Of a DNA stretch of 57,306 bases, positions 22,159 to 57,306 are shown one piece after another. The position numbers were made by a program, and so were the translations under genes. The notes below the pieces were generated by a model, which saw nothing but the letters and a program-made list of their open reading frames with translations, was not told where the DNA came from and searched no databases. Source of the stretch: Clostridia bacterium (GTDB lineage Bacteria; Bacillota; Clostridia; Christensenellales; UBA1242); NCBI GenBank assembly GCA_009929275.1, contig SAAW01000004.1, positions 1 to 57,306 on the forward strand, read 5' to 3'. The number at the start of each line of letters is the position of its first letter. Positions within the stretch are counted from its first letter, which is position 1.

Positions 22159-22317
22159 CAAAAAATTTGACACAGTTTCAATTAAAATTGGCAATAATTA
22201 GAGATGATTTGTTTTAATTTCGAAAAGCAAAAATATTTTGGTAAATTCAAAAAAGAATATAAAAACAATTTTTGAAAACGGCTTTATTTGATATAATTAT
22301 TTTAATTGAGGTGACAA

Positions 22318-38892: not shown

Positions 38893-40842
38893 TTGACTAG
38901 GAGTTATGATTCAAAAGATTTGGTAGTTTTAGATGGATTAGATGCTGTTAGGCTTCGCCCCGGAATGTATATTGGCTCGACGGGAAGTAAGGGTGTTCAT
39001 CACATTTTGTGGGAGATTGTGGACAACTCTATCGACGAAATTACAAACGGATTTGGTTCGAAAATTACCATCACAATGCACGCAAATGGTTCGGTTACTG
39101 TGGAGGACAATGGGCGGGGAATCCCTGTGGATATTCACCCAACGTACAAAGTCTCGGGGGCAGAACTTGTGTTCACAAAACTGCACGCAGGCGGGAAGTT
39201 TGACTCTAAAAACTATAACTATTCGGGCGGACTTCACGGCGTCGGGGCTTCGGTGACTAACGCATTAAGTGAATATATGGACGTGCGAATTTACAGAAAC
39301 TGCAAAGAATATGAGATTAAATTCCACTCTGTTGCAGATTCAAAGGGCAAAGTCCACGGCGGAGTGCTTAAGCAAAAACTAATGGAAATCGGACCCACAA
39401 AAAAGAATGGAACGACGATAACTTTTTTGCCAGACAAAAGGATTTTTGGCGACATAACACTTGACCCTGTTATAATCAAAAAAAGGCTGAAAGAACTTGC
39501 ATATCTAAACAAAGGGCTAGAAATTATTTTTGTGGAAGACGAGGCAAATGTCACAAAAAAATATAAATTTGACGGCGGGTTGGTGGACTTCATTGAATAT
39601 TTGTGCGAAGCAAAGACAATGCTTTTCAAACCTGCTTTTTTCATCGAAAGTGAAGATGAAAGGTTGCAAATGTCTGCTGCCATTTCCTACACAGACGGTT
39701 ACACCGACAGTTTCTTTTCGTATGTCAACAACATACCCACCACAGAGGGTGGAACTCACGAAATGGGCTTTAAGTCGGGGTTGACCCGTGCATTAAACGA
39801 TGTGGCAAGGAAACTCGGGCTTTTGAAAGATAAAGAGGAAAATCTCTTGGGTGAAGACTATCGCGAGGGCATTTCAGCAGTGCTTGCAATCAAAATGAGA
39901 GATATTGAATTTGAAGGGCAGACAAAGACAAAACTTGGCAATCCAGAAGTGAAAAATATTGTTGAAAATATGGTTTTCAAAGAATTATTGAGATTTTTTG
40001 ACAAAAAAGAAAACGCAAAGATTGCGGGAATAATTTTAGACAAGGCAAAAGGGGCTGCTCGCACAAGGCTTGCTGCAAAAAAAGCAAAGGAACTTACTAG
40101 GCAGAAAAACAGCATTGAAAACAGTTGCCTTGTGGGGAAACTGGCTTCGTGTTCGGGCAGAAAATCAGAGCAAAACGAACTCTTCATTGTGGAGGGCGAC
40201 AGTGCTGGAGGAAGTGCAAAACAAGCGAGGGACAGAGGTTTTCAAGCCATTTTGCCACTCAAAGGAAAGCCACTGAATGCCGAAAAGAAAAGGCTCGACC
40301 AAGTGCTTGCAAACGAGGAAATAAGGACGATTATTGCCTCATTAGGCACGGGGATTGGCGAAGATTTTGACATCTCAAACTTAAAGTTTTATAAGGTGAT
40401 AATTCTTTCCGATGCCGACCAAGACGGCGCGCATATCAGGGCAATTTTGCTTACTTTCTTTTTTAGATATATGAAAGAACTCATCACAAATGGCAATGTC
40501 TACATTGGCTTGCCACCGCTATATAAAATTGAGAAAAAAGACAAAGTTGAATATGTCTATTCCGACAAAGAACTGCCAGAAGCCATCGAGAGATTTGGCA
40601 AAGGCTACACCATTCAAAGATATAAAGGGCTTGGCGAGATGAACCCAGAGCAACTTTGGGACACCACTATGGACCCTGCAAAAAGGACACTTGTGCGAGT
40701 GGGGATCGACGACATTGCAAACGCTGAACTTTTGATAACAACACTTATGGGGAATGATGTCGAGGCGAGAAAACAATATCTTTCGGAATATATTGACTTT
40801 AACAAGGAAGATAATTTCACTAAATATGGCGAAGGGAAGTAA
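38893..40842 (+). CDS. type IIA topoisomerase subunit B (GyrB/ParE family)
   Basis: TTG start 7 nt after [30 protein letters not shown] ATPase, [29 protein letters not shown]. 649 aa. Not next to dnaA/dnaN/recF, so possibly the ParE-type paralogue. Confidence 0.9.
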
Positions 40843-40852
40843 TTGGCAGAAT

Positions 40853-43800: not shown

Positions 43801-43912
43801 TCATTTTAAAAACACCGACCTTGTGTCTATTGAGGCTCGCACAGGAAAAGGGAAAATGCTTGAAAAAACAAACAAAAATTTTAGCGTTAAAGACTCATTT
43901 TTAATTGTTTAG
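40853..43912 (+). CDS. type IIA topoisomerase subunit A (GyrA/ParC family) with ~219-aa charged N-terminal extension
   Basis: The conserved core starts near 41510 ([43 protein letters not shown]). [14 protein letters not shown] and catalytic [10 protein letters not shown]. No QRRGGKG GyrA box seen in the short CTD. The start is uncertain (40853, 40826 or 40754). Confidence 0.88.
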
Positions 43913-43965
43913 AATTTAGTGCAATATTTTTATAACAAATAATAATTTTTAATAATAAATATGTT

Positions 43966-43998
43966 TGAAAGAGTTTTCTTTCAGGCATATTTTTTTTG
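43966..43998 (+). terminator. putative terminator after the topoisomerase operon
   Basis: Stem TGAAAGA / TCTTTCA, loop GTTT, then a T8 run 6 nt downstream. Confidence 0.5.
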
Positions 43999-44106
43999 CT
44001 TTTATAGTATTTATAAAATAGATGTCATAGTTAAAAAGCATATTTTGATAAAAAAAGACATTTATGGACAAAAGTTGATAATTCCATTTTATTTGGAGGT
44101 TATAGA

Positions 44107-44895
44107 ATGAAGAAGCATAGAGGAAAACTTAGGTTTTATACATTCAAAATGTTTTGGGTTAAAGCAATCCTTCTTATGATGGTGACGCTTTGCGTGCTTT
44201 CAATCAGTTTTGACGGCACGGGGGCTTTGGCACAAGTGTTTTTCAACAAAACTGGCAAAAAACTGCCCGTTTATTGTGTTCAAAACAGTTCTAAACAAAT
44301 TGCAATTTCATTTGATGCCGCGTGGGGCAGTGACAAAACAGAGAGCATACTTAACATTCTTAAAGAGGAGAATGTTCTTGCAAACTTCTTTTTGGTGGGA
44401 ATGTGGGTGGACAAAAACGAGGAATTGACCAAAAAAATCTATGATGCAGGAATGGAAATAGGCACTCACAGCAACACTCATGCCAATTTTACATCTCTTT
44501 CAAAGACGCAAATGGAACTTGAACTGACAGAGAGTGTGAAAAAAATTGAAAATATCACAAAAGAAACAGTCAAATTGTTTCGCACACCTTTTGGGGCATA
44601 TGACAACAATGTCATTTCAGTGGCTGAAAATCTCGGGCTTCAAACAATTCAGTGGGACGTCGATTCTCTTGACTGGAAAGGTATTTCAAGTGAAGAGATT
44701 GTGAAAAACATTCTTAAAAAAGTGAGCAGTGGCTCGATTATTCTTTGCCATAATAACGCCGAAAGCATCGTGGAAGCACTTCCTAGCGTGCTGAAAATCC
44801 TCAAATCGCAAGGCTATGAATTTGTGCATATTAGTGACTTGCTTTTAAAAGAAAACTTTACAATCGACATAACTGGAAGGCAAATTTTAAAATGA
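44107..44895 (+). CDS. NodB-homology polysaccharide deacetylase (PdaA/PdaB-type)
   Basis: SD GGAGG. N-terminal TM/signal. IAISFDAAWGSDKT...NFFLVGMW...GMEIGTHSNTH...IILCHN. Confidence 0.8.
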   Translation: MKKHRGKLRFYTFKMFWVKAILLMMVTLCVLSISFDGTGALAQVFFNKTGKKLPVYCVQNSSKQIAISFDAAWGSDKTESILNILKEENVLANFFLVGMWVDKNEELTKKIYDAGMEIGTHSNTHANFTSLSKTQMELELTESVKKIENITKETVKLFRTPFGAYDNNVISVAENLGLQTIQWDVDSLDWKGISSEEIVKNILKKVSSGSIILCHNNAESIVEALPSVLKILKSQGYEFVHISDLLLKENFTIDITGRQILK

Positions 44896-44926
44896 AAAAA
44901 GTTTAAAATAAAATTGGAGGAAAAAA

Positions 44927-45580
44927 ATGAACTACGAATTAATGGAAAACAACAAAGTTTTTTTAAAAGGAGTTGTGTCGTCTGAGCCGAAGTTTAGCCA
45001 CGAAGTGTTTGGCGAGGGTTTTTATGAATTAGACTTAAAAGTGAAAAGGCTTTCGGATAATTTTGATGTGGTGCGGGTCACCGTTTCCGAAAGACTTCTT
45101 TCAAACGAAGATTTTGCACTTGGGAAATTAGTTGCTATCAAAGGGCAATTTAGGAGTTATAACAAAATTTGCGAAGGGAAAAGTAAACTGCTTTTGACTG
45201 TATTTGTCAGGGAAGTAATTGATTTTGACGACACGATGAACCCAAATATTGTGGAACTCAGCGGTTATGTTTGCAAAGAGCCAATTTTTAGGACGACGCC
45301 TTTTGGCAGAGAAATTTGTGATGTTTTGGTGGCGGTGAACAGAGCATATAATAAGTCGGACTATCTCCCTTGTATTGCTTGGGGGCGAAATGCCAGATTT
45401 GTGAAGTCCATTAAAGTGGGCGAGAAAGTGGACATAATTGGCAGAATTCAAAGTAGAGAATATCAAAAAAAGTTGAATGAAAACGAAGTTTTGACAAAGA
45501 CTGCATATGAGATTTCTCTCAACAAAATTAGAGTGGAAAATATGGAAAATTTCATTGAAAATGACGGGCAGTTGGCTTGA
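44927..45580 (+). CDS. tandem two-OB-fold SSB-like protein
   Basis: SD GGAGGA. Two internally homologous ~100-aa halves (VFLKGVVSSEPKF...IKGQFRSY and VELSGYVCKEPIFRTT...IIGRIQSREY) with an SSB/PriB-like pattern. No canonical acidic D-D-D-I-P-F tail. Confidence 0.6.
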   Translation: MNYELMENNKVFLKGVVSSEPKFSHEVFGEGFYELDLKVKRLSDNFDVVRVTVSERLLSNEDFALGKLVAIKGQFRSYNKICEGKSKLLLTVFVREVIDFDDTMNPNIVELSGYVCKEPIFRTTPFGREICDVLVAVNRAYNKSDYLPCIAWGRNARFVKSIKVGEKVDIIGRIQSREYQKKLNENEVLTKTAYEISLNKIRVENMENFIENDGQLA

Positions 45581-45632
45581 AAAATACTTGAAAATAAAAT
45601 AAAGTTTACCTTTTAAACATTTTTTTAAAATT

Positions 45633-45661
45633 ATATCCCTTTTATAATGGGATATTTTTTT
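45633..45661 (+). terminator. intrinsic terminator after the SSB-like gene
   Basis: Perfect stem ATATCCC / GGGATAT, 9-nt loop, T6. Confidence 0.8.
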
Positions 45662-45727
45662 ATACTAATAAAAAAATTAAAAAATTTAGAAAATAATTAA
45701 AGATGACACATTATGTCAACATAAAGG

Positions 45728-45750
45728 TGATAATATCGAACATATGTTTG
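45728..45750 (+). promoter_or_regulatory. extended -10 promoter with abutting LexA box
   Basis: TGaTAATAT (45728-45736) is followed immediately by CGAACATATGTTTG (45737-45750), which matches 13/14 of CGAACATATGTTCG and covers the expected transcription start. Confidence 0.55.
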
Positions 45751-46014
45751 AAACAGTAAAAAAATTTTGAAATAATTTTAATTTATCTTTTAAAATATTT
45801 TCGACAAAATTCGACAAAACTCAATCTTTCATTATATTTGAGAAAAAGAGTCAAAAATAATTAAAATAGTTTTTAAAGATATTTTAAAAAATTATTCAAA
45901 ATTATGTCATCAAGTCTTGACTTTGCGCATTTTAGTATCTTAAACTGATTGTGTCAAAGCAAAAATTTGCTTATTTTGAACAAATTATAAATTATTTTAA
46001 AAGGAAAATCTTTT

Positions 46015-46554
46015 ATGGAAATGATGAATTTTGAAGTAAAATCTTTGCTTGCAATTTATAATCTTATTCCGCAAGTCGCGGAGTCGATTGACAAGTTGGT
46101 GAGGACGCGTGCAAGTTGCTCGTGTGTGCAGGAGGTCGAAAATGGGGTGGAAAGGCAAATGGAGTCTATCATAAAACTTACCATGCAAAAAGTTAATTTG
46201 ATTAATCTAAAAATCCTCGCCGATGAAACTCTTTGTGAGATGCCTCCAAGACTCTCAAAATTGGTGATTGCGAGGTGTATAGACAAAATGGACATCAATT
46301 TCCTTGCAAGCACTCTTGGCATTAGCGTGCGGGACACATACAGAAAAATTAAGAACGCTTTGCAAGAGTTTAAGCGAGTTTTCCTCAAAATTGTTTTAAA
46401 AAACAAAAAAGTCTGGGACAAGATTGTTAAGAATTTCTTTTGGTTTGACGTGCTTGAAAAGATTAATAAGTTTGAAGATGAGGGCGGTGGGGTTTCTATC
46501 TGTCCAAAATTTGTTTGTAAGATGATTTTGCAAAAATTGAGAAAAATTGTTTAG
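46015..46554 (+). CDS. sigma-70 region-4-like HTH protein (candidate ArpU/RinA-type late-gene activator)
   Basis: 179 aa. LCEMPPRLSKLVIARCIDKMDINFLASTLGISVRDTYRKIKNALQEF resembles sigma region 4 / ArpU-family HTH. It lies upstream of the packaging genes, as phage late activators do. Confidence 0.45.
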   Translation: MEMMNFEVKSLLAIYNLIPQVAESIDKLVRTRASCSCVQEVENGVERQMESIIKLTMQKVNLINLKILADETLCEMPPRLSKLVIARCIDKMDINFLASTLGISVRDTYRKIKNALQEFKRVFLKIVLKNKKVWDKIVKNFFWFDVLEKINKFEDEGGGVSICPKFVCKMILQKLRKIV

Positions 46555-47351
46555 AGAGAATCGTCATAATAATCTTGGATTTGCTTTATTGTTTGAGGCT
46601 TTGAGTGCTTTTTTATACTGCTTGATTTTTGCTCTAGTTTGAATGGTTTGAAAAGGAGATATATCAAAAATAGCGCAGGAAATATAAGTAGAAATAGCAC
46701 CAAAATTTTCAGCCCCGAAGTCATTTCCACAAGATTATAGAGATATGAGTCGTCGTCTTCAAAGGGATTTGAAACATATGTCACCACTTCGGTGTTTAAA
46801 CTTACTGTGGAAGAAGTGTCGCAAAGCCCTTCATAAAGGTAGCCAAAAGTGTCGTTTACATTGCAATAATACCAAGTTGTGCCTCGTTCGCTCACCATTT
46901 CTTCGCCAGAGATTGCCCCATAAAAATTGGCTTGTTGGTGCAGGTCAACTCTTGTTGTCACTGTCCCATTTATTGAAGATGGAGTTGAATAGACATTTCT
47001 GCCGTCGCTTGAAAACACCCAAAAAGTGAAGTTTTCTAAAAAAGGATTTTCGGGCGTCTCGGCAACGGGGGACACTTCATCTTTCAAAACATACCCGACA
47101 AGGTCGCGATATTGTGCTTTATAAAAATAGTCATTAAAATTTGACAGCAGAAGAACAAAATAACTTTCAGGGATAACGAAAAGTGCGTTGTCGCTTATGT
47201 TTCTTTGCGGGAAAGAATAGAAATAGGTGGATGAATTTTCCACTCTTGCATAGGCATAGGTTGTGAGGGAATTCGCTTTGGCAGAGGCTGGTATGTTGCC
47301 ATAAAAAAAGAATAAAAAACAAAAAACGAAAAAAGACATTATGAATTTCAA
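46551..47351 (-). CDS. secreted, membrane-anchored protein with two SH3b-like repeats
   Basis: TTG start 7 nt after AAGGAG. Signal peptide (FFYGNIPASA), two Y..x..GYV/GYLY SH3b-like modules, a C-terminal TM and a charged tail. Confidence 0.6.
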   Translation of the reverse strand: MKFIMSFFVFCFLFFFYGNIPASAKANSLTTYAYARVENSSTYFYSFPQRNISDNALFVIPESYFVLLLSNFNDYFYKAQYRDLVGYVLKDEVSPVAETPENPFLENFTFWVFSSDGRNVYSTPSSINGTVTTRVDLHQQANFYGAISGEEMVSERGTTWYYCNVNDTFGYLYEGLCDTSSTVSLNTEVVTYVSNPFEDDDSYLYNLVEMTSGLKILVLFLLIFPALFLIYLLFKPFKLEQKSSSIKKHSKPQTIKQIQDYYDDSL

Positions 47352-47428
47352 AGTCGTTTCTCCTTTTAAAAAGAATAAAACATATCATTTTAAAATTAAT
47401 AACTTTTATTGTTGAATTGTGGGTGAAA

Positions 47429-48850
47429 ATGAAAGAAAAACTGGAAGCATTAAACAAAATTTTTAAAATACTTAAAATTAGAAAAAACAATAATAAACTT
47501 AAAACATATAATGCTGGCGAAAAAAAACACGAAAAACAGATTGCGTTTCACAAATGTCCCAAAAAAAATAGGTGGGTGTTTGGCGGGAATAGGACGGGCA
47601 AAACGGAATGCGGTGCAGTGGAAACTGTCTATCTGGCACGTGGTTGTCACCCTTACAGAAAGGTTGAAGGTGCAACGGAAGGCTGGGTGGTGAGTTTGTC
47701 GCGTCAGGTGCAAAGAGATGTGGCGCAGAGAAAGGTTTTGTTCTATTTGAACAAAGATTGGATTGAAGAAATTGTGATGAACGAGGGTAGAAAAGACTTC
47801 CCCGAAAATGGAATAATTGATTATATTTTGATTAAAAATGAGTTTGGGACGACTAGCAAGATTGGCTTTAAGAGTTGCGATCAAGGCAGAGAAAAATTTC
47901 AAGGAACGGGGCTGAACTATGTCTGGTTTGACGAGGAGCCACCCGAAGAAATTTATGTTGAGTGTAAGATGAGAGTGCTTGACAAGTGCGGTATTATTTT
48001 CGGCACAATGACTCCGCTTAAAGGCTTGACTTGGGTCTATGACACAATATTTTTGAATGAGAGAAGCGACGAAGAGGTGTGGTTTTGCCAAATGGAATGG
48101 CGAGACAACCCTTTTTTGAATGAGAGAGAGATTGAAAGTTTTGAACATAGTTTGTCCAAAGAAGATTTGGAAGCACGAAAATACGGGCGTTTTGTGGGCA
48201 CGCAGGGGCTTGTGTATAAGGAATTTGATGAGAGAGTAAATGTTATTGAGCCTTTTAATATACCAAAAGAATGGTTTGACAATATGTCCATCGACCCTGG
48301 GCTAAACAATCCGCTTTCTTGTCATTGGTATGCCGTGGATTATGATGGGAATGTGTTTGTGGTGGCGGAATATTTTCAGAAAAATAAAGACATTGATTAT
48401 CACGCAAATGAAATTAAAAAAATTTGCGAAAGACTTTCTTGGCACAAAACAAGTGCTGGAAATTTCGAGTCGCTCATCGACAGTGCGGCAAATCAACGCA
48501 CTCTAAATGGCGTTAGAAGCGTGGCAGAACTCTTTTGCGAAAGGGGAATAATGGTGAATACAAAAGTGAATAAGGATTTGTTTGCTGGCATTTCTGTCGT
48601 GAAAAGTTATCTCAAAAATGAACAAGGACAAGCCCGACTTTTCATTTTTAGCACTTGCGTTAATCTCATAAGAGAGATGAAAACATACTTTTGGGGCGAC
48701 GGCGACAATCCTGTGAAGAAAGACGACCATTGCCTCGACGAACTTAGATATTATCTTATGTCAAAGCCACAAGCACGAGAGCGAAAAAAAAGCGAGATTG
48801 AGAAACATAAGGAAAAGTTGATTAGGCAAAAACGAAGGAATAATTTTTGA
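47429..48850 (+). CDS. terL: phage terminase large subunit
   Basis: Walker A GGNRTGKTE, Walker B LNYVWFDEEP, nuclease-domain motifs SIDPG and DDHCLDELRYY. ATG at 47429 (TTG 47417 is an alternative). Confidence 0.85.
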   Translation: MKEKLEALNKIFKILKIRKNNNKLKTYNAGEKKHEKQIAFHKCPKKNRWVFGGNRTGKTECGAVETVYLARGCHPYRKVEGATEGWVVSLSRQVQRDVAQRKVLFYLNKDWIEEIVMNEGRKDFPENGIIDYILIKNEFGTTSKIGFKSCDQGREKFQGTGLNYVWFDEEPPEEIYVECKMRVLDKCGIIFGTMTPLKGLTWVYDTIFLNERSDEEVWFCQMEWRDNPFLNEREIESFEHSLSKEDLEARKYGRFVGTQGLVYKEFDERVNVIEPFNIPKEWFDNMSIDPGLNNPLSCHWYAVDYDGNVFVVAEYFQKNKDIDYHANEIKKICERLSWHKTSAGNFESLIDSAANQRTLNGVRSVAELFCERGIMVNTKVNKDLFAGISVVKSYLKNEQGQARLFIFSTCVNLIREMKTYFWGDGDNPVKKDDHCLDELRYYLMSKPQARERKKSEIEKHKEKLIRQKRRNNF

Positions 48851-48871
48851 AAGTAAAAAAAGGAAAAAAAA

Positions 48872-49168
48872 ATGGAAATTGAAAAAAATTTTGATAAAAA
48901 TTTAAAAAATAAAAATATCATCTTAACTTCACTTTTTGATTTGGCAAAAGGGTGTATTTTGAAAGAAAAGACAGAAGATTTTGTGACAGATTTGGAGGGA
49001 AACATCAGCCTTAAAAATAGAAAAATTGTGAGAAAACAACTTGCCCCAGATTTGCAAGCGATAAAAGTTTTAATGGACCTTAAAATTCACGAAGACTTTG
49101 AAGAAATGACAGATGAACAACTTCAAAAAGAAAAAGAAAGACTGCTTGAAGAAATTAAAAATTGTTAA
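48872..49168 (+). CDS. hypothetical small protein (possible small-terminase remnant or accessory)
   Basis: 98 aa, SD AAAGGAAAAA. The segment KQLAPDLQAIKVLMDLK is faintly reminiscent of the small-terminase C-terminal P-D-x-x-A-x-x-F/W-L motif. This is a memory-based, weak resemblance. Confidence 0.5.
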   Translation: MEIEKNFDKNLKNKNIILTSLFDLAKGCILKEKTEDFVTDLEGNISLKNRKIVRKQLAPDLQAIKVLMDLKIHEDFEEMTDEQLQKEKERLLEEIKNC

Positions 49169-49204
49169 AAATTTAAAAAAGGTTTTTATAAAAGAGGAGA
49201 AAAA

Positions 49205-50779
49205 ATGAAGAAAAATAAAAAAGAAGAATTTGTGGAGGACTTGGTTGAGGCTGTAAAGTTGGACTTTGAAAACAGACAAAAGGAGAGAAAAAGTTATGAG
49301 GCAGAATGGAAACTTAACAGCAATTTTTATGGCGGAAATCAATATGTTGGGATTAATGCGATGAATGATTTGGTGAAAATTCCAAAAGAATTTTTCTGGC
49401 AAGAAAGGCAAGTCTTCAATCACATTGAGCCTATCGTCGAATCTCGCCTTGCAAAACTCACAGCAATAAGGCCAGAGATGGAAGTTATGCCTGCAAGCAA
49501 CAATGAAAGTGACATAAAAACGGCAAATATTTCAAGGGACATTTTAAAAAGCGTGTATGAAAAACTTAATCTTTCATCTGTCATTTCAAAGGCGACAATT
49601 TGGAGCGAGATCACAGGCACGAGTTTTTACAAAATAACTTGGAACAATTTTGCTGGCAAAAAAGTGTTTTCAAAAAATGACAAAACAATTTTTGAGGGAG
49701 AAGTGGAAGTTGTCCCTGTGTCGCCTTTTGAGATTTATCCCGACAGCAGTAGCAATGAAAATGTGGACGATTGCGAAAGCATAATTCACGCAAAAAGTTA
49801 TAGCACAAAAATGATTAAAAACATTTGGAAAGTGGACGTGCAAGGAAGCGACATTAACGAAATGAGCCTCACAGACAGTGCTCGTGAGGATTGCGTCAAA
49901 CATTCGCAAGCAGTTGTGATTGAAAGATATGAGGCCCCAAATGAGGAATGTCCGAACGGTCGGTTGGTAATAGTTTGCGGTGATAATCTGCTATATTTAG
50001 GCGAACTTCCGTTCAAAAACGGTGTGGACGGGAAGAGGGTTTTTCCGTTTGTGAAGCAAGTGTGTTGTAAAAGGCCGGGTTGTTTTTGGGGAAAAAGTGT
50101 CATAGACAAAATCATTCCAGTGCAACGAGCATACAACGCTCTTAAAAACAGAAAGCATGAATATCTAAACAGAATTAGTATGGGTGTTTTGACGGTGGAG
50201 GACGGAAGTGTCGACACAGAAAGTTTGGAACAAGAGGGGTTGCAAGCAGGCAAAATTTTGGTGTATAGACAAGGCTCGGAGCCACCAAAATTTTTGGCGG
50301 AAGAGACTCTTTCAGGTGACTTTGAAAACGAGGAAAAAAGACTGCTTTCTGAATTTAATGAAATCAGCGGAGTGAATAGCATCTTAACTTCAAACATAAG
50401 TTCACAAACAATAAGTGGAACGGCACTTGAACTTTTGATTGAACAAAGCACTTCAAGGTTAAGTTCTTCTGCCAATGAAATTGAAATGGCGGTTAAAAAT
50501 TTGGCAAAAATAATCCTTAGACTATATAAACAATTTGCAGTCGTGCCGAGAATTTTGAGATTGTCAAACTCTGAAAAAGAATTGTCTTTTTGGAAAAATT
50601 CTGACCTTGGGCAAGACGATATTCAATTTTTGAGCGACAGTGCCACAGAAGAAAGCCTTGCCTCAAAAAGAAGCAACATTTTAAAACTTTTGTCGTCGGG
50701 TGTGTTGCACAACAACGACGGAAAACTCGATGATAGTGTGAAGTTAAAAATTGCCACTTTGTTTGGCATTAATTTATAG
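49205..50779 (+). CDS. phage portal protein
   Basis: 524 aa directly after terL. N-terminal pattern WKLNSNFYGGNQY...VFNHIEPIVESRLAKLTAIRPEMEVMPAS...D is typical of portals. SD AGAGGAGA. Confidence 0.8.
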   Translation: MKKNKKEEFVEDLVEAVKLDFENRQKERKSYEAEWKLNSNFYGGNQYVGINAMNDLVKIPKEFFWQERQVFNHIEPIVESRLAKLTAIRPEMEVMPASNNESDIKTANISRDILKSVYEKLNLSSVISKATIWSEITGTSFYKITWNNFAGKKVFSKNDKTIFEGEVEVVPVSPFEIYPDSSSNENVDDCESIIHAKSYSTKMIKNIWKVDVQGSDINEMSLTDSAREDCVKHSQAVVIERYEAPNEECPNGRLVIVCGDNLLYLGELPFKNGVDGKRVFPFVKQVCCKRPGCFWGKSVIDKIIPVQRAYNALKNRKHEYLNRISMGVLTVEDGSVDTESLEQEGLQAGKILVYRQGSEPPKFLAEETLSGDFENEEKRLLSEFNEISGVNSILTSNISSQTISGTALELLIEQSTSRLSSSANEIEMAVKNLAKIILRLYKQFAVVPRILRLSNSEKELSFWKNSDLGQDDIQFLSDSATEESLASKRSNILKLLSSGVLHNNDGKLDDSVKLKIATLFGINL

Positions 50780-50792
50780 AAGGAGAAAAAAA

Positions 50793-51302
50793 ATGAATGA
50801 TGAAAATTTGGAACAACTAGAAAATTCGGAAATTGAAACTGAAAATGACCTTGAAAAAACGCAATTTGATGGCTCCAAAAAAGACGAGCAAATGTCTTTT
50901 TTAGGCAAGTTTAAAGATGCACAAAGTCTCTTTGTTGCCTATAATAATTTGCAAAGTGACTACACCAGAAAGTGTCAGGCACTATCTTCATTGCAAAGGA
51001 AATTTAAGGATAAGATTGACGAATTAAGTCCTGAAAATTTTGAGAAAAGCGGTGAAGAAAAAATTGTGAAAGAAAAGTTGTCAACTCTCGAAAAGGACAC
51101 ACTTTTACAAGAATACATATTTTCAAATGAGGACCTTAAAAGCAAAATTTTGACAAAATATTTTGATGAAATTTATTTGCCAAAAAGCCCAAAGTTGATC
51201 AGTGGCGACAGGGGAAGTAACCCAATTTTGTCCCCGATATCAAAACCAAAAACTTTGGAGCAAGCACAGAGCCTTGTTAGAGATATGTTCGACAAAAAAT
51301 AA
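50793..51302 (+). CDS. phage scaffolding protein
   Basis: ATG at 50793 after AGGAGAAAAA. Acidic coiled-coil protein with FKDAQSLFVAYNNLQSDYTRKCQ motif. Lies between portal and capsid. Confidence 0.6.
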   Translation: MNDENLEQLENSEIETENDLEKTQFDGSKKDEQMSFLGKFKDAQSLFVAYNNLQSDYTRKCQALSSLQRKFKDKIDELSPENFEKSGEEKIVKEKLSTLEKDTLLQEYIFSNEDLKSKILTKYFDEIYLPKSPKLISGDRGSNPILSPISKPKTLEQAQSLVRDMFDKK

Positions 51303-51391
51303 ACTTTTTGGAAATGTTTTATATTTTACAATTATTTTCAAAAAGACTTTTTGTTATTTTAAAAATAATATAAAAAAAAGGAAAAATAAAA

Positions 51392-52558
51392 ATGGTAACA
51401 TTAACAACTGCAGAGAACGCTCTTAAAAGCGTTTATCTCAATGTTTTGAGCGAACAATTAAACATAAACGCAAATGCTTTTTTGTCAAAAATTAAGCAAA
51501 CAAGCAAAGATGTTTTTGGAAAAGAAATCATAAAACTTGCACCTTATGGATTAAACGGCGGGATCGCTGCTTTAAGCGAAACGGGAACTCTCCCAACTGC
51601 AAGCGGACACAATTTTTTGCAATTTAAAACAAGTCTTAAAAATCTCTATGGCAAAATCTGTCTTTCAGACAAAGCAATTCGTGCAAGTGCATCAAACACT
51701 GGTGCTTTTGTGAATTTGCTTAATGATGAGATGGAAAGCCTCATAAAATCGAGTGCTTTCAATCTTGGAAGAATGATTTATGGCGATGGCACAGGACTTC
51801 TTGCCACAGCAACTGTGACAGAAACAGTTGTCACTTTTGACACTGTGAAAAGTATGGTGGAAGGAATGAAAGTGGACGTCTTTAACAGCGCAACTCCCGT
51901 TGCTCTTGGCGCAACTATAACCTATGTGGATAGACAAGCAAAAAAAGTTACTTTTGACGCAGAGATTGCTTTTGTCACAGGCTACACTGTGTTTGCAAGT
52001 GCTTCAAAGGGCAATGAAATCACAGGTATAAAAAGATTGTTTGACAAAACAGAAGCAAACAAATTGCTTTATGGTGTGGACAGGACAGACTATGCTTGGC
52101 TCTATCCATACATTAACTTAAACGGCGGAAGTGACAAAGACATAACCGACGCTATGATTCAAAACGCTATTAACAGCATTGAAGAAGAAACTGGTGCACA
52201 GCCAGACTTCATTGCTGTGTCAGGGGACGTGAGAACGGCATATCAAACATATCTGAACACAAACCGAAGAAATATTGACATAGCCACCCTTGCAGGTGGA
52301 TATAAGGCAATGACGTATGCGGGAATCCCTGTTGTTTATGAGAGATTTGTGGAAGACGGCGAAATGTATTTTTTAAATTCAAAAGATTTCAATCTTCATC
52401 AACTTTGCGATTGGGAATGGTTGGAGGGCGAAAATGGAAACATTTTAGTTCCAAGTTCAACAACCCCAACATATTCTGCAACGCTTGTGAAATATGCCGA
52501 ACTAATCTGCGACAGACCTGGTGCACAAGGAAAAATCTCAAACATTAAGTCGGTTTAA
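51392..52558 (+). CDS. phage major capsid protein (presumed HK97 fold)
   Basis: 388 aa in the canonical position after the scaffold gene. Composition is typical of major capsid proteins. No protease gene is present. Confidence 0.75.
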   Translation: MVTLTTAENALKSVYLNVLSEQLNINANAFLSKIKQTSKDVFGKEIIKLAPYGLNGGIAALSETGTLPTASGHNFLQFKTSLKNLYGKICLSDKAIRASASNTGAFVNLLNDEMESLIKSSAFNLGRMIYGDGTGLLATATVTETVVTFDTVKSMVEGMKVDVFNSATPVALGATITYVDRQAKKVTFDAEIAFVTGYTVFASASKGNEITGIKRLFDKTEANKLLYGVDRTDYAWLYPYINLNGGSDKDITDAMIQNAINSIEEETGAQPDFIAVSGDVRTAYQTYLNTNRRNIDIATLAGGYKAMTYAGIPVVYERFVEDGEMYFLNSKDFNLHQLCDWEWLEGENGNILVPSSTTPTYSATLVKYAELICDRPGAQGKISNIKSV

Positions 52559-52593
52559 CAAAGAAATATTGTGAGAAACAATGGAGAGTCAAA

Positions 52594-52968
52594 ATGAAAA
52601 ATTATAGGATAGAAATTAAAAATGACGTGCTTTGCATTTCAAAAAGGATAAAGAAAATTGATAGGAATTATAAAATTTTTTTCAATCAAAATTCTGGGAA
52701 TTTTGAAGTGTGGCACAAAAAAGAACTATCACTTGTGTTGGGAAAAACACTGGACAATTTGGCTCTTTTAAAAACTCACAAAACAAACATCAGAAACTCA
52801 AAGACACTGCTTCAAAATATGGAAGAAACAAACGAAAAACTGAAAATGAATGAAAATGACGACCTTGAAAACAAAAATAAGGCCCTTCTTTCCAGTCTGC
52901 TTTCATATTTAGATAAAAAGTCTTGCGAAACTGATTTTAAAGATATTAACACGACAAAATGGTTTTAA
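52594..52968 (+). CDS. hypothetical phage-module protein
   Basis: SD GGAGAG. 124 aa, basic N-terminus and coiled-coil C-terminus. Confidence 0.55.
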   Translation: MKNYRIEIKNDVLCISKRIKKIDRNYKIFFNQNSGNFEVWHKKELSLVLGKTLDNLALLKTHKTNIRNSKTLLQNMEETNEKLKMNENDDLENKNKALLSSLLSYLDKKSCETDFKDINTTKWF

Positions 52969-52982
52969 AAAAGGAGAAAAAA

Positions 52983-53561
52983 ATGACTGTTTTAGAATTA
53001 TTAAAAAATGCAAGTTTTTATTTGAACTTGGACGATGAATTTGCTCCTTACTTCGACTCTTCTTCGGTCACTCCAAATGACGAAACAAAAAGAGAGTGGG
53101 GTAAAATGCTCTGTGCTTTCAATTCTCTCATCAAAAGCATCGCAACCGAAAGAATTCCTCTCACAAAAGAAGAAGAAATTGCGTTTGATTGCAACGGCGA
53201 ATTTTTGCTAAACACTCTTGCAGAAAAATTTCATTCCATTCAAACTATCACGGGCTACAGCGGTTTTGTGTTCGCAAGTTCTTCAAATGACGGAAAGTTA
53301 AAGTCGAATTACAAGGGACCTGCCGTCTTAAAATATGCTTATGTCCCAGCAGACTTTGTCGTTGAAGATGAAGTCAGCGTGTTTGATGGGGTGCTAAATG
53401 ATTTGGTCTATTCCTATGGAATTGCCTACATCTATTGTGAGATGTACGCACTTTATGACGACGCACAAATGTGGAAAGAAAAGTTTGAAAAGGCAATCAA
53501 TGATTGTATGAGTGGAGTTGTGCGGGAGCGGGTGATGAGAGTTAGAAGGTGGCTAAACTAA
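52983..53561 (+). CDS. head-tail connector (gp6-like)-type protein, putative
   Basis: ATG at 52983 after AAGGAGAAAAAA. The N-terminus MTVLELLKNASFYLNLDDE resembles the gp6-like connector opening (L..LK..LRIDxDD). 192 aa. Confidence 0.45.
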   Translation: MTVLELLKNASFYLNLDDEFAPYFDSSSVTPNDETKREWGKMLCAFNSLIKSIATERIPLTKEEEIAFDCNGEFLLNTLAEKFHSIQTITGYSGFVFASSSNDGKLKSNYKGPAVLKYAYVPADFVVEDEVSVFDGVLNDLVYSYGIAYIYCEMYALYDDAQMWKEKFEKAINDCMSGVVRERVMRVRRWLN

Positions 53562-53562
53562 A

Positions 53563-55038
53563 ATGACGAAAAAAAGTTACACTAAAAAAAGGCTTTTCAT
53601 CGACAATTTTTCTTCAATGCAAAACAAAGATAATAACGAATATGATCTCGAACTCTGTGAGCCAAAAACTTGCTTTAATGTGAAAGAAAATCTGGGAACT
53701 CTTGTGTGCACAAATGGGTTGATTCATCTAAAATTACCAATCTCACAAAGTTTTGTGTTTGAGACAAATATGAGAGAATTGTCTGGCATCACTTTTTCTA
53801 AAATTTGGCACTACAAATATTTTAGTCGCATAAACAACAGATACGAATATATTTTGGTGGCTTATGCAAGTGACAAAAAACTCTATTATACAAACATATT
53901 TTTTGCCGATGACTCTTTTCACAAAATTGACATCACCGTTAACTCCGAGCCTTCTGCGATAAACTTTATTGTTTCAGGCGACGATGTGATTGGCTTTTCT
54001 TCGCTGGAAGATGACTTTTTGGTGTGGTATTGCGATGCGAACCCCTATTCCGTTACAACTGCTCCAAGGTTTATATCGATATGTATGCACAAGCAAAGGT
54101 TGTTTGTCATAGACGCAGAAAACGACAATTTGGTGCGTTTCAATTCAAAAACTGACCCAATGGAATGGACAACTTCAAACGATGGGGAAGACGCGGGAAC
54201 GATTGAAATGAATGACTATAAGGGACACTTGAAAAATTTGCTCTCTTTTGGCGACTATGTATATGTTTTCAGAGATAATGGCATCTCAAAAATAATTTCA
54301 TATTCTTCCGATTCACTATATTCCGTGAGCAATGTCTATTCGAGCAGTAGAATAATCTATTGCTCCACGGCTTGTGTCTGCGAAGACAAAATATATTTTT
54401 TGCAAGAGGACGGACTTTATGAGTTTGATGGCTCAAAAGTTGAAAAAGTGGATTTGAAATTTTCATCAATGCTTAACGGGAACTCGCAGGAATTTGCTAA
54501 CACTTGTTTTTATGATGGGAAATTATATATTTCGTGCAAGTTGAATTTTGACGATAACACGACAGTAGGTTGCGAAAGTGGGTCGTTCAAAAACAATTGC
54601 CTTATGGAATTTGATCCAAAAACAAAAAAATATAACATCACTCGTGGCGTGGACATCTGTTGTATGATTGGCTTAACCGATTTGTTTGTGAATAAACTAA
54701 TTGTTTTGCAAAATAGCAGTTCTTTTCTTTGGCAACTTGATAAAACGGGGATTTTGCACAACACAGTGCTCCCAAAAAAATGGGAAAGCGGGAAGATAAC
54801 TTTAAGCAGTTATTCGACAAACAAAATCCTTAAAGAAATTAGACTGAAATGTTCTTGCAGTTGCAACATTAAAATCGAGTGTGAAAACAGAATCAAGACA
54901 TTTTCGCTTGTGAAAAGTGAAAAGATAACAAGACTAGTGTGTTTGCTTTCTGGGAAAGAGTTTAAACTGACTATTTCGTCAAATGATAACGAACTTAGTA
55001 TTTCAAATTTGGAGATGATTTTTATTGAAGAAAGTTAA
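53563..55038 (+). CDS. large beta-rich structural protein (candidate nozzle/tail/receptor-binding protein)
   Basis: 491 aa, starting 1 nt after the previous stop. Repeated hydrophobic-Tyr/Phe-Asp/Gly strand-turn patterns suggest a beta-propeller or beta-sandwich. No motif recognised. Confidence 0.5.
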   Translation: MTKKSYTKKRLFIDNFSSMQNKDNNEYDLELCEPKTCFNVKENLGTLVCTNGLIHLKLPISQSFVFETNMRELSGITFSKIWHYKYFSRINNRYEYILVAYASDKKLYYTNIFFADDSFHKIDITVNSEPSAINFIVSGDDVIGFSSLEDDFLVWYCDANPYSVTTAPRFISICMHKQRLFVIDAENDNLVRFNSKTDPMEWTTSNDGEDAGTIEMNDYKGHLKNLLSFGDYVYVFRDNGISKIISYSSDSLYSVSNVYSSSRIIYCSTACVCEDKIYFLQEDGLYEFDGSKVEKVDLKFSSMLNGNSQEFANTCFYDGKLYISCKLNFDDNTTVGCESGSFKNNCLMEFDPKTKKYNITRGVDICCMIGLTDLFVNKLIVLQNSSSFLWQLDKTGILHNTVLPKKWESGKITLSSYSTNKILKEIRLKCSCSCNIKIECENRIKTFSLVKSEKITRLVCLLSGKEFKLTISSNDNELSISNLEMIFIEES

Positions 55039-55138
55039 TAGAAAAACGAGTAAAAAAAAGGTGTTTTATGCAAAAATAATAAGGGAAGAAGACTTAAAAA
55101 ACGGCTTTAAAAAAATTCTAAACAGCAAGTAAAAAATT

Positions 55139-55357
55139 ATGTGGGACGAAATTTTCAAAATGGCTCTTTCAAACGGCATTTGGGCAGTTCTCTTTGTGGC
55201 ACTTTTGATTTTTCAACTAAAAGATAGTGCAAAAAGGGAAAAGAAATATCAGGAAACAATCGCAAAACTCAATTCTCACCTAGATTGCGTGGAAGACATT
55301 AAAGACGAAATCAAAGAAATACGCTCGGCAATCTTAAAAGGAGTGAAAAACAAATGA
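55139..55357 (+). CDS. BhlA/UviB-family holin-like protein
   Basis: 72 aa. NGIWAVLFVALLIFQLKDSAKREKKYQETI matches my recollection of the BhlA pattern (G.FAVLF..LL.Y..K.S.ERE.K). Single TM plus coiled coil. Confidence 0.65.
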   Translation: MWDEIFKMALSNGIWAVLFVALLIFQLKDSAKREKKYQETIAKLNSHLDCVEDIKDEIKEIRSAILKGVKNK

Positions 55358-55632
55358 ATAAAGACAAAAAATCACTGTCATTTTGGCTCGGATTTTCTTG
55401 CTTTGTTTTAGGGCTTTTGGAGACAATACTCTTGTCTTTTGGCATCGACTTTATCATAAATATCATCGTGGAAGGAGTGGCAATCTTGCTTTTTGTTCTC
55501 GTTTATTTTGGCGTGTTTAAAGCAAACGAGGAAGAAAACATTGAGGAAACTTATGAAAACATTAAAAGTTGCCTTAAAAAATCACTCAAAGACAAAGACA
55601 AAAGCCTTGATGACGACGAAAAAGAGGACTAG
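55354..55632 (+). CDS. two-TM small membrane protein with acidic tail (class-II-holin-like topology)
   Basis: ATGA overlap with the previous ORF, SD AAAGGAGTG. Two TM segments followed by a K/D/E-rich tail. Confidence 0.55.
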   Translation: MNKDKKSLSFWLGFSCFVLGLLETILLSFGIDFIINIIVEGVAILLFVLVYFGVFKANEEENIEETYENIKSCLKKSLKDKDKSLDDDEKED

Positions 55633-55652
55633 ATTTATAATTTATCTTAAAA

Positions 55653-55683
55653 GAGCACCAGAAAAACTTTGGTGCTTTTTTTA
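55653..55683 (+). terminator. strong intrinsic terminator closing the phage-like operon
   Basis: Stem GAGCACCA / TGGTGCTT with a 9-nt loop, followed by T7. Confidence 0.8.
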
Positions 55684-55867
55684 TTTTTTTGAACTTGAAG
55701 ATATCAAAAGTTTTTCGTAATTTCAAAAAAACAGTTGCATTTTTTTTTGTTTTAATGTATTGTTAGTAACATAGATTGAGTTTTTGTGTTGCAAAATTTC
55801 ACTGCTAGCGGGAATATTTTAGTTTACAATTCGTCTTTTGACGACTATATTTTGAGGAATATATACA

Positions 55868-56812
55868 ATGATTTTTAGAAATTCGATTAGACTTCTACTA
55901 ACCAACTTCTCAACAGTTTGGAAAGTCCTTGTTTACTATCTAATATGTTTCACGGTGACTATTGGTGTTTGCTATTTGCTCGCTGAACCAATTGTTCAAA
56001 AATTGACGCAAGCAAACATTTTTGAGGACGCAATTGCCATAATTAACAACATTTTTTCAAGCAATCCAACCACCACTGCCTACACCGCAAGCGAACTTTT
56101 AAGTAAGGCATGGACGATAATAATCACAAACTTTCAGTTCAAATTCAATTTTATTTTCCTCATCATTTGGCTTGTTTTTGCTTTTCCATATTTGCTTAAC
56201 CTTTGCCAACTTGCAATGGGCGACCTTCTCTATGGATATATGACAAGTCAAGTGAAATATTCTTTTTCTGGCAGAATGATCATCAATCTTGGCAGGAGTG
56301 CAGTGTTTTCGCTCGTCAGATTTGTTGTTATGTTAGCGTTTAATTTGGTAAGTATAGGGCTTTTTGTGCTTTCGGTGTCGCTGGCAATCACTGGGGTGAT
56401 ATCAAACATTCTTTTGGCTCTTGGGGTTCTCACTTTGCTCATTTGCTTCGTTGCCTTTAAACAAACATTGTTTTCTTGCTGGATGCCCGCATTAGCGGTC
56501 TTAGGCGTCAATCCTTTTAAGGCATTAAAACGAAACTTTAAAGCAGTTTTTCAAAACTTTTTTGCTGTCTATTCCAATTTTTTGCTTCTTTGCTTTTTAA
56601 CTGTGGTTGTGAACTTATTTTGTTGTGTTTTCACGGCGTCCATTTCTCTCATCATCACTTTGCCACTCACTGTCTTTGCCTTTTCGGTGTTCCAAATGGT
56701 GACTTACTTCACTTCCCAAGGAATGAGATTTTATGTCTATCCAGACCTGTTCATTTCGCCAAAACACTTTGAAGAACAAGACAAAATTAAGAGAATTAAA
56801 AATCTTTTGTGA
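55868..56812 (+). CDS. multi-pass membrane protein of unknown function
   Basis: 314 aa and about 6-7 TM segments. No SD. Confidence 0.6.
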   Translation: MIFRNSIRLLLTNFSTVWKVLVYYLICFTVTIGVCYLLAEPIVQKLTQANIFEDAIAIINNIFSSNPTTTAYTASELLSKAWTIIITNFQFKFNFIFLIIWLVFAFPYLLNLCQLAMGDLLYGYMTSQVKYSFSGRMIINLGRSAVFSLVRFVVMLAFNLVSIGLFVLSVSLAITGVISNILLALGVLTLLICFVAFKQTLFSCWMPALAVLGVNPFKALKRNFKAVFQNFFAVYSNFLLLCFLTVVVNLFCCVFTASISLIITLPLTVFAFSVFQMVTYFTSQGMRFYVYPDLFISPKHFEEQDKIKRIKNLL

Positions 56813-57085
56813 AAAACAAAAATTTTTAGCAATGTTTTTGATAGTAAAGTGTTATTTCCTGCTTAAAATTGCGTTATTTGAAAGCAAACAAAAACAAAGA
56901 TATCATAAAAAAACAAGTGAAATTGATTTCAAAAGATAAAAAACAAATTTGATATAAAAAGATTTATTAATTTAAAATGCTTTGCGTTTTATTTGTAAAT
57001 GTGCAAAATTACATCTTAAATTAATAAGTTTTTTAAAAAAATACTTAAAAAAATAAAAATATCTTAAGGAGATAAAAAAATTAAT

Positions 57086-57306
57086 ATGCAAAATCTAAAA
57101 GTAAGTTTTCTAGGGGGAATCGGCGAAATCGGCAAAAATATGACCGTTCTTGAATATGGTAAGGATATGATTGTCATCGATGCAGGGCAGGCGTTCCCAG
57201 ATGAGGCAACTCCGGGTGTCGACACGGTTGTGCAAGACTTGACCTACCTTGAAAAAAACAAATCAAAAATCAGAGGACTTTTCATCACTCACGGACACCT
57301 CGACCA
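57086..57306 (+). CDS. rnj: ribonuclease J (3' end outside the window)
   Basis: Not in the ORF track because it is open-ended. The translation is MQNLKVSFLGGIGEIGKNMTVLEYGKDMIVIDAGQAFPDE...IRGLFITHGHLD, an RNase J N-terminus with the HxHxDH beta-lactamase motif. SD AAGGAG. Confidence 0.88.
   Translation, partial: MQNLKVSFLGGIGEIGKNMTVLEYGKDMIVIDAGQAFPDEATPGVDTVVQDLTYLEKNKSKIRGLFITHGHLD

Follow-up and report, generated by a model that had tools for sequence, protein, structure and literature searches.

A block of phage-type head and packaging genes lies between housekeeping genes on contig SAAW01000004.1 of a Clostridia bacterium, which raises the question of whether it is a prophage, a capsid-forming satellite or a particle-forming system kept by the host itself. 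The whole stretch of DNA analyzed, hereafter the window, comprises 57,306 nt. The block region takes up about 10 kb of it, and the block proper (46015–55632) consists of twelve open reading frames (ORFs), eleven of them on the plus strand, making up about 9.6 kb of structural and packaging core plus a regulator. The block is very probably a phage-derived system that has been domesticated and is maintained by its host. It is on balance best described as a domesticated, vertically inherited podovirus-derived particle operon of an uncultured Christensenellales-like Clostridium and a candidate gene transfer agent (GTA)-like "viriform," and it is reasonably probable that host DNA is packaged by it in the manner of a GTA. 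A system of the GTA kind is favored because of the absence of mobility and replication genes, the conserved core loci, the co-divergence with neighboring genes, purifying selection, host-like codons and the dispersed architecture seen in relatives.

Structural and packaging genes

A profile scan of one genome per GTDB species detected a relative of the block's major capsid protein (MCP) in at least 599 of these species representatives. The locus was compared with those of the best 80; the loci of relatives carry labels (L001, etc.). The regulator, TerL, portal and MCP genes recognized in a first-pass annotation of the sequence were confirmed by Pfam, PHROG and NCBIfam matches, and the holin-like gene at 55139–55357 by phrog_2429. 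The earlier inventory was incomplete, as it overlooked a minus-strand gene for a 266-aa protein (46551–47351) and the TerS-like nature of a 98-aa ORF. All genes described in this section lie on the plus strand.

The large terminase TerL (47429–48850; 473 aa from the ATG at 47429, in an ORF opening at TTG 47417) was identified by matches to PF03237 Terminase_6N (5e-13), PF17289 (2e-5) and phrog_2 (2e-30). Many columns are invariant in an alignment of 24 TerL orthologs, and by our own motif assignment the invariant stretches include Walker A (GGNR.GK), Walker B (WFDEE) and acidic residues of the nuclease half. The next gene encodes a short protein of 98 aa (48872–49168), called TerS-like because it is orthologous, by alignment, to members matching phrog_309 ("terminase small subunit"). 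Such matches were obtained for 25 of 32 orthologs (best 1.5e-8), and 14 of the 32 also match phrog_23444. The phrog_309 matches span only positions of about 190–265 of the 319 in the profile; the protein is therefore TerS-like without the N-terminal part of the TerS profile, which is where a DNA-binding domain would be expected to sit. A profile search of the TerS-like protein against the PDB retrieved designed repeat proteins only.

The portal (49205–50779; 524 aa) is of the P22/SU10 type, with matches to PF16510 P22_portal (2e-19), PF23899 and phrog_156 (7e-38). Its length differs between lineages: in a comparison of the window with L003, L005, L030, L087, and L212, the C-terminus was found to be about 100 aa shorter in the window's closest relatives (L001, L008, L011, and L012; 504–531 aa) than in other lineages (617–628 aa).

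The MCP (51392–52558; 388 aa) belongs to the podovirus type, as evidenced by its assignment to NCBIfam NF033394 capsid_maj_Podo (7e-75, 252 bits at a cut-off of 80), a match to phrog_14242 (2e-54) and a precomputed annotation as PF17236 SU10_MCP. Between the portal and the MCP, a gene present in 79 loci encodes a protein of 169 aa counted from an ATG preceded by a GGAG site (50793–51302), or of 183 aa in the ORF opening at TTG 50751. No Pfam, PHROG or NCBIfam family was matched by this protein except for a weak phasin match, and no protease match was obtained; its position and composition alone make it a putative scaffolding protein. Downstream of the MCP lies a conserved gene for a 124-aa protein (52594–52968), found at the same position in 41 loci. 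The only match among its orthologs (7 of 32) is to phrog_17018, a family of unknown function, and a profile search against the PDB gave no match.

The next two genes bear on the first-pass description of the block as tail-less. Structure prediction was needed for their products since sequence-profile searches of the PDB gave little: the search with the first protein was uninformative, and the profile of the second matched the SU10 tail chain 7z47_G at E 0.029, a result independent of the model. The first (52983–53561; 192 aa in an ORF of 200 aa) had been called connector-like; its AlphaFold2 (AF2) model has a predicted local distance difference test score (pLDDT) of 85. Its top 25 Foldseek matches in the PDB are without exception portal-tail, neck or connector chains of phages, almost all of them podoviruses, including SU10 (7z4b_DU, template modeling (TM) score 0.65), Pa223, N4, the PhiM1 adaptor and KP32 tail tubular protein A (best E 6.5e-6). 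It is thus predicted to be a podovirus head-to-tail adaptor similar to T7 gp11 (tubular protein A). The second (53563–55038; 491 aa) was modeled from 35 homologs as a beta-propeller with a pLDDT of 90.9 and a predicted TM score of 0.90. Its top 26 PDB matches are all tail complexes of short-tailed phages, the best being Pa223 9nwi_Y (E 3.7e-21, TM 0.74/0.71), with VP1, GP4, SU10, PhiM1, P22 (9jg6_a) and T7 gp12 among the others, and it also matches phrog_3287 ("virion structural protein"). The model identifies it as a podovirus tail nozzle or hub similar to P22 gp10 and T7 gp12. The portal, a gp11/gp4-like adaptor and a gp12/gp10-like nozzle being all present, the block is therefore not tail-less and is predicted to encode a minimal podovirus virion core. 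Its previously mysterious ORFs include intact adaptor and nozzle genes according to Foldseek, and not the degraded tail or integrase fragments that would have pointed to prophage decay. Pfam and PHROG scans of the window detected neither fibers or spikes of a tail nor a needle, a plug, internal proteins for ejection or an endolysin.

The structural genes are followed by two genes for holin-like proteins. The first (55139–55357; 72 aa) belongs to the BhlA/UviB family (phrog_2429, 1.3e-13); its ortholog in L001, 87% identical, carries PF10960 Holin_BhlA, and the gene is present in 69 loci. The ORF of the second (55354–55632; 92 aa) overlaps it by 4 nt. The sequence features of this protein, two hydrophobic segments and a charged tail, suggest another holin-like membrane protein; it matches phrog_2429 and phrog_25899 weakly, was found in only 16 loci and evolves fast.

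Conservation of the locus and selection

Homologs of the MCP number in the thousands, and an exhaustive profile search yielded 518 clusters (50% identity) at E<1e-30. The 80 genomes compared are metagenome-assembled genomes titled uncultured Christensenella sp., Clostridia bacterium or Candidatus Onthoplasma (Christensenellales in the NCBI taxonomy). In their loci the order TerS-like gene, portal, scaffold, MCP, gene for a protein of about 120 aa, adaptor, nozzle and BhlA holin is invariant. The check suggested earlier, whether the block occupies the same interval between a parC-like gene and rnj in related genomes, had a positive outcome for many relatives. The window-type locus starts with the ParC, deacetylase and SSB genes, continues with the regulator, the 266-aa membrane protein, TerL and the further block genes down to the holins, and ends with a 314-aa membrane protein and RNase J. 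It recurs in L001–L003, L008, L011–L013, L046, L067, L084, and several IMG/VR contigs, in relatives with MCPs 53–91% identical. Another clade carries the block between rubrerythrin/HTH (helix-turn-helix) genes and spoIIGA-sigE-sigG-spo0A. In deeper relatives (MCP 37–43% identical) it again appears as chromosomal blocks among housekeeping genes. Contigs of about 16 kb with a distant MCP were considered as small complete phage genomes, and this was rejected, as they are chromosomal fragments with the same block.

Not all lineages keep the genes together. Of 65 informative loci, 32 lack genes for TerL, the regulator and the SH3b-like (266-aa) membrane protein over a stretch of at least 4 kb upstream of the portal; in roughly half of the lineages the system thus seems to be divided between two or more loci. 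In the two split loci examined, L030 and L090, ABC-transporter genes lie directly upstream of the TerS-like gene, and ComEC or PolA is encoded downstream. Such a dispersed architecture is like that of known GTAs.

The genes themselves are preserved. Intact orthologs were found for the MCP in 82 of 83 cases, for the nozzle in 75 of 76, and for the portal (75), TerL (28) and the adaptor (68) in all; frameshifted copies at non-syntenic positions, the pattern expected of a plain decaying prophage, were not what nearly all of the approximately 80 genomes revealed. The presence of purifying selection, suggested earlier as a check, is indicated by pairwise dN/dS values of 0.03–0.3 for every block gene, with 0.04–0.06 for the MCP. 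Among relatives dS is at or near saturation, and in the block it equals that of the flanking housekeeping genes; in the L011/L012 pair, for example, parC, ssb, terL, portal and nozzle all have values of 1.20–1.23. Pairwise protein identities of block and flank correlate as well (r = 0.53–0.87; TerL with SSB 0.87, MCP with SSB 0.72), and codon usage is shared (relative synonymous codon usage, r = 0.95; GC content at third codon positions, 0.37 in the block vs. 0.39 in the flanks). Synteny, dN/dS, dS, the identity correlation and codon usage together point to vertical inheritance under purifying selection, as is expected of a GTA.

Flanking genes and mobility functions

The claim that the block is flanked by housekeeping genes was borne out on both sides. 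Pfam scans took in about 30 further ORFs of at least 120 aa across 1–45580 and revealed housekeeping families only, which at positions 1–38688 are NrdD/G, FloA, RuvCAB, QueA, Tgt, YajC, SecDF, RecJ, PNPase, deacetylase and M16 peptidase, and further FtsK, MiaB-like, PgsA, CinA, RecA, HtrA-like, and MurG. The gene readings at 38893–45580 (ParC, deacetylase and SSB) follow from Pfam marks of the orthologs in L001–L003. For topoisomerase IV (ParE/ParC, 38893–43912) the evidence comprises the first-pass call, sequence motifs and PF00521/PF03989 in the L001 and L003 orthologs; the ParE gene at 38893–40842 is taken from the first-pass call alone. To the right, a gene for a multi-pass membrane protein is followed by the start of the RNase J gene at the end of the window.

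Genes for integrase or recombinase, repressor, replication, tape-measure, tube, sheath and lysin proteins were not found across the 57-kb window by Pfam and PHROG scans, which upholds the earlier statement that integrase, repressor, replication and tail-tube-type genes are absent from it. No tRNA gene occurs in the surroundings of the block, and the search for attachment (att)-like repeats flanking it gave only AT-rich low-complexity imperfect matches. Neither an integrase nor att sites were thus found just outside the boundaries, where their presence would have spoken for a mobile element. The block consists of chromosomal structural and packaging genes and, like GTAs, brings with it no functions for integration, excision or replication; the flanks in relatives are free of them as well. 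The integrase, att sites, replication module and repressor of a satellite are absent, as are the lysogeny, replication, full tail and lysis modules of a prophage and decayed fragments of them.

Regulatory genes and operon organization

The first gene of the block (46015–46554, plus strand) encodes an activator-like protein of 179 aa, of the DUF1492 or phage late-gene-activator type, with a sigma-70 region-4-like HTH. It matches phrog_36 ("transcriptional regulator") at 7e-7; its orthologs match this family at 3e-12 and also phrog_248 ("transcriptional activator"), and the ortholog in L003 carries PF07374 DUF1492. Weak NCBIfam sigma-70 (region-4) matches cover residues 39–123. The regulator is kept upstream of TerL in 15 loci.

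The overlooked minus-strand gene (46551–47351) is convergent with the regulator, with a 4-nt overlap, and divergent from TerL. It encodes a conserved membrane protein of 266 aa with an N-terminal signal or transmembrane (TM) segment, an extracellular SH3b-like region and a C-terminal TM segment; the profile gives weak matches to bacterial SH3 domains (6biq, 0.007; 2kt8, 0.014). The gene has the same position and orientation in 26 loci, and its dN/dS is 0.07–0.16.

A conserved motif, AACTTTTATTGTTGAA (47401–47416, plus strand), is located 12 nt 5′ of the TerL ATG. Variants of the form TTTTATTGTYGWAA were recognized by eye about 10–20 nt before the TerL start in the divergent relatives L001, L003, L008, L011, L025, L046, L052, L053, and L076. 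Judging from its sequence and place, the AACTTTTATTGTTGAA/TTTTATTGTYGWAA-type motif is possibly a promoter or operator of the structural operon, and a candidate target of the DUF1492-type activator.

Upstream of the regulator lies an AT-rich intergenic spacer of 434 bp (45581–46014, GC 0.30), with several promoter-like sites at 45748–45867; the spacer may have a regulatory role, to judge by its sequence. The first-pass annotation had described the block as bracketed by strong terminators. This holds for the right side, where an intrinsic terminator with a 14-bp stem, a 5-nt loop and a T-run closes the operon (55649–55681, with the element delimited as 55649–55691, plus strand); on the left, the sequence can be read only as a modest terminator, a hairpin with a T-run at about 45629–45665 that ends the SSB-like gene. 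Shine-Dalgarno sites of the GGAG type do precede most block genes, as had been noted, and the reported overlaps of 1–4 nt are restricted to two junctions of 4 nt each, the others being gaps of 1–100 nt. An Rfam scan of 44000–57306 gave no regulatory RNA above noise.

The most likely course of action, as deduced from these genes, is as follows. The DUF1492/RinA-type activator, which the adjacent SH3b-like membrane protein may help to control, would turn on the operon from TerL to the holins in some cells, and a procapsid would be built from the portal, scaffold and MCP. TerL and the TerS-like protein of about 100 aa could then package chromosomal DNA by a headful mechanism without sequence preference. 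The adaptor and nozzle would seal the portal, producing a capsid with a very short tail, and the BhlA-type holin-like proteins could release the particles in concert with host autolysins or with a lysin from another locus.

Relation to known systems

The closest published analogue is FpGTA of Faecalibacterium prausnitzii, which has a different capsid family. This podovirus-like GTA of a Gram-positive gut commensal was first reported in 2026 (PMC12946183, Nat Commun 2026). Operon I of FpGTA (10.5 kb) encodes a TerS-like protein, TerL, portal, a Prp-like protein and MCP, and further on the nozzle and a TolA-like protein; fibers, holin and endolysin are encoded by a second operon 125 kb away, and the particles have capsids of about 40 nm, no visible tail and 8.5–9 kb of random host DNA (PMC12946183). 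The block, known here from its genes alone, resembles FpGTA in being a chromosomal operon of about 10 kb without an integrase in a gut Clostridium, in its backbone of TerL, portal, small protein, MCP, small proteins and podovirus nozzle, in a TerS-like protein without an evident DNA-binding domain, in its near-ubiquity in the host clade and in the placement of additional genes at another locus. What matches is the architecture (TerS-like protein without DNA-binding domain, TerL, portal, MCP, nozzle and no integrase), which is not proof of common descent.

There are also differences. FpGTA belongs to a host of the order Oscillospirales, and the block to a Christensenellales-like one. The FpGTA MCP is named as N4-gp56 family, whereas the NCBIfam scan of the window MCP gave only NF033394, with PF17236 as its other assignment, the two proteins being compared by description. 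In FpGTA, the portal and MCP genes enclose a gene for a Prp-like cysteine protease, and a TolA-like protein is abundant, whereas the window has a scaffold-like protein in the portal-MCP interval and no Pfam, PHROG or NCBIfam protease match there. In the block, moreover, the TerS-like gene comes after TerL, and the DUF1492 activator, the SH3b-like membrane protein and the BhlA holins are additional. Because the MCP family, the Prp-like gene and the host order differ, the block is regarded as a distinct lineage of the same kind as FpGTA.

To our knowledge, only a handful of GTAs are known, almost all of them siphovirus-like and from Alphaproteobacteria. The block, conserved in hundreds of Christensenellales-like species as a core locus of the chromosome, would represent a second cluster type, with another capsid family. 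In RcGTA, a TerS without its DNA-binding part goes with non-specific packaging. The same connection was proposed for the TerS-like protein of FpGTA (PMC12946183). By analogy, the missing N-terminal profile part in the TerS-like protein of the block would be an indirect indication of random packaging. RcGTA and CcGTA also resemble the block as vertically inherited, integrase-less head and packaging clusters under purifying selection with dispersed accessory loci and a dedicated activator (introduction of PMC12946183). They differ in their siphovirus-like build: they have head spikes as well as a tail tube and tape measure, and their MCP is of the unrelated HK97 type, whereas the neck and tail of the block are podovirus-like and no tube or tape-measure gene is present.

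The true phage relatives of the block appear distant, its MCP being 26–27% identical to those of Microbacterium phage Shocker and Cellulosimicrobium phage DS1. Shocker shows a similar succession of terminase, small ORFs, portal, scaffold-like gene and MCP, and further on encodes an adaptor-sized "tail tube" protein of 214 aa and a nozzle-sized protein of 514 aa. The predicted folds of the window adaptor and nozzle match those of SU10, Pa223, P22, and T7. The Shocker and DS1 genomes, however, are 45–46 kb long and include DNA metabolism, lysis enzymes, fibers and a virion-type protein of more than 1,700 aa, in contrast to the chromosomally fixed block of about 9.6 kb. Downstream of the Shocker nozzle are large virion genes of the fiber/ejection type, and none of these is present in the window.

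No description of this cluster was found in full-text literature searches. The Christensenellales-like group is often linked to host health and heritability. In faecal virus-like particles (VLPs), GTA-like packaging of host fragments of about 4–7 kb was noted for the Christensenellales genera HGM11616 and QANA01, the genes for it not being identified (PMC12946183). The cluster is an obvious candidate for these genes and offers a concrete, testable gene set for the GTA-like DNA packaging seen for Christensenellales in human faecal VLPs.

A relative of the MCP was found on 62 IMG/VR contigs and a relative of TerL on 212 (loci L092–L147 and L155–L187). The closer of these contigs are mostly short pieces of the same chromosomal block, some with ssb and deacetylase flanks. 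Since dozens of chromosomal blocks are held in IMG/VR as "viral contigs," virome surveys may be counting these host loci as phages.

A tentative and more far-reaching proposal, to which we give slightly less than even credence, is that an ancient podovirus was domesticated independently of FpGTA, became fixed across an order-level Christensenellales clade (at least 599 species) as a minimal capsid-adaptor-nozzle particle and is the basis of the 4–7 kb packaging in HGM11616 and QANA01. Should this hold, the distinctive traits of the system would be the pair of DUF1492 activator and SH3b-like membrane protein, the TerS reduced to about 100 aa, a locus that half of the lineages have in two parts and the repeated insertion of mobile elements into TerL.

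Alternative explanations

The claim that the block is a host-maintained particle-forming or DNA-packaging system and not a product of random decay is supported by synteny, intactness, dN/dS and the lack of an integrase and att sites. Several points weigh against a role as a GTA-like packager. Particle formation, the DNA carried and its delivery are deduced from genes, and delivery to recipients is made less certain by the lack in the window of a receptor-binding fiber, needle or plug, ejection proteins and endolysin; the genes for fiber, needle, ejection and lysin might sit elsewhere or be absent. GTAs have a capacity below the size of their coding locus; the 4–7 kb fragments of HGM11616/QANA01, which are not linked to this cluster, would fit such a capacity. 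The window's own 98-aa protein scores below threshold against TerS profiles, only its orthologs being significant. Finally, large insertions break up the TerL gene of at least three relatives, and the system is therefore dispensable in some lineages; the insertions could mean loss of function or a reversible interruption of the "skin"/comK type.

The interrupted TerL genes have the following surroundings. On the 65-kb contig IMGVR_UViG_3300001688_000618, TerL residues 5–318 and 319–477 are encoded about 51 kb apart (pieces L184, 1611–2591, and L095, 2559–3089), and the two ends of the insertion encode a type I restriction-modification system and a Y-family DNA polymerase, respectively. In L142 (240–7187), prophage genes of the tail type (DUF6711, DUF6273) and an endolysin gene abut a TerL fragment of residues 173–471. 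L134 is another relative listed with an interrupted TerL.

The alternative that survives best, which we regard as unlikely, is a domesticated particle with a function other than transfer: killing or competition in the manner of PBSX, programmed lysis with release of extracellular DNA, a phage decoy or a sporulation-linked role. Such a function would agree with the lack of fibers, needle, ejection proteins and lysin in the block, with the annotation of the holin-like BhlA/UviB family as "involved in bacteriocin production or immunity" and with the location of some relatives next to spoIIGA-sigE-sigG-spo0A or to SpoIVA and a sigma factor; the authors of FpGTA themselves leave a PBSX-like role open for it (PMC12946183). 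In PBSX of Bacillus subtilis, too, a Gram-positive bacterium has a domesticated phage-like element, and the DNA packaged is random host DNA (PMC12946183), but PBSX is a defective prophage of the myovirus type whose tail is contractile and whose function is killing, and the block has no sheath, tube or baseplate genes. A nozzle without spike or needle is no obvious killing device, and sporulation genes are neighbors in some clades only. Among the block proteins, conservation is particularly high in TerL and the TerS-like protein (dN/dS about 0.04, the TerL value), with ATPase- and nuclease-type motifs intact; DNA packaging itself therefore appears to be under selection, which argues for the GTA-like reading.

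The first-pass alternative of a capsid-forming satellite found no support and is very improbable. Capsid-forming phage-inducible chromosomal islands (cf-PICIs) have an integrase, att sites, a repressor, a replication module and a sporadic distribution, and use the tails of helper siphoviruses. An element of this type would build its own small capsids and packaging machinery and depend on a helper phage for induction and other virion parts. The head- and packaging-dominated gene set, with capsid, portal and terminase of its own and few or no tail genes, and the phage-type late activator give the block a superficial likeness to cf-PICIs, and many such blocks are listed in IMG/VR as viral contigs. 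Yet neither the window nor the flanks in relatives contain an integrase, excisionase, repressor, primase or replication module or att repeats, and the block encodes its own podovirus adaptor and nozzle. A sporadic, horizontally acquired distribution was not observed either: locus, dS and codon usage agree with the neighboring core genes across deep divergence, pointing to vertical inheritance, and the genes are dispersed in half of the relatives.

There is a similarly slight chance that the block belongs to a still autonomous virus or mobile element of an unconventional kind, with replication and integration genes situated outside the window, which stops 1.7 kb to the right of the block; fibers and lysin must, after all, be somewhere. 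The right flanks of 7–10 kb in relatives, however, encode RNase J, acetyltransferase, sigma factor, MgsA, PolA or ComEC and no phage or mobility genes, the 45 kb on the left are all housekeeping, and the divergence of the block tracks that of its flanks.

Least probable of all is a decaying, functionless prophage remnant, which could account for the many missing phage modules, the TerL insertions in a few relatives and the single truncated MCP and nozzle genes among about 80 loci, but neutral decay would long since have destroyed genes whose reading frames are intact in about 99% of orthologs from at least 80 species, whose dN/dS is 0.03–0.3 at near-saturated dS and whose order is kept down to 37% MCP identity. 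An encapsulin-type compartment was also considered and is excluded by the presence of TerL and portal.

Further observations on the locus and its variants

Polysaccharide deacetylase and the SSB-like protein are the constant left neighbors of the block in all ParC-type loci. The latter (44927–45580; 217 aa) matches phrog_26861 (2e-31) and, more weakly, the SSB family phrog_44. In the ParC-like ORF (40754–43912; 1052 aa), the topoisomerase domain is preceded by about 270 aa of N-terminal extension, which is of low complexity and contains many Lys, Glu and Asp residues; its orthologs are similarly long (1017 aa in L001 and 1297 aa in L003).

On the right, the multi-pass membrane protein (55868–56812; 314 aa) is encoded downstream of the holins in 20 loci of several clades (24–87% identity), and in the window a strong terminator separates its gene from the block. 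Its identification as SpoIIGA was considered and rejected, since BLASTP shows no similarity.

Additional genes occur in the block or right behind it in some lineages: a gene for a 758-aa protein in the interval between TerL and the TerS-like gene in L005 (4623–6899), one for a DUF7934 protein (296–336 aa) between nozzle and holin in L005 (13698–14588) and L212 (13618–14628), and genes for proteins of 400 and 736 aa after the holin in L030 (14661–18162). None of these proteins gave a PDB match or an informative PHROG match; those of L005, L212, and L030 are candidates for fiber, needle or lysis functions.

A distant and more compact block in L213 (2894–11024) comprises genes for SpoIVA, a sigma factor, TerL (492 aa), proteins of 359 and 117 aa, the MCP (403 aa) and proteins of 107, 110, and 284 aa, and may be a further-reduced version adjoining sporulation genes. 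It is followed by PNPase, deacetylase and M16 peptidase genes, and the same trio is located at 19254–23583 of the window.

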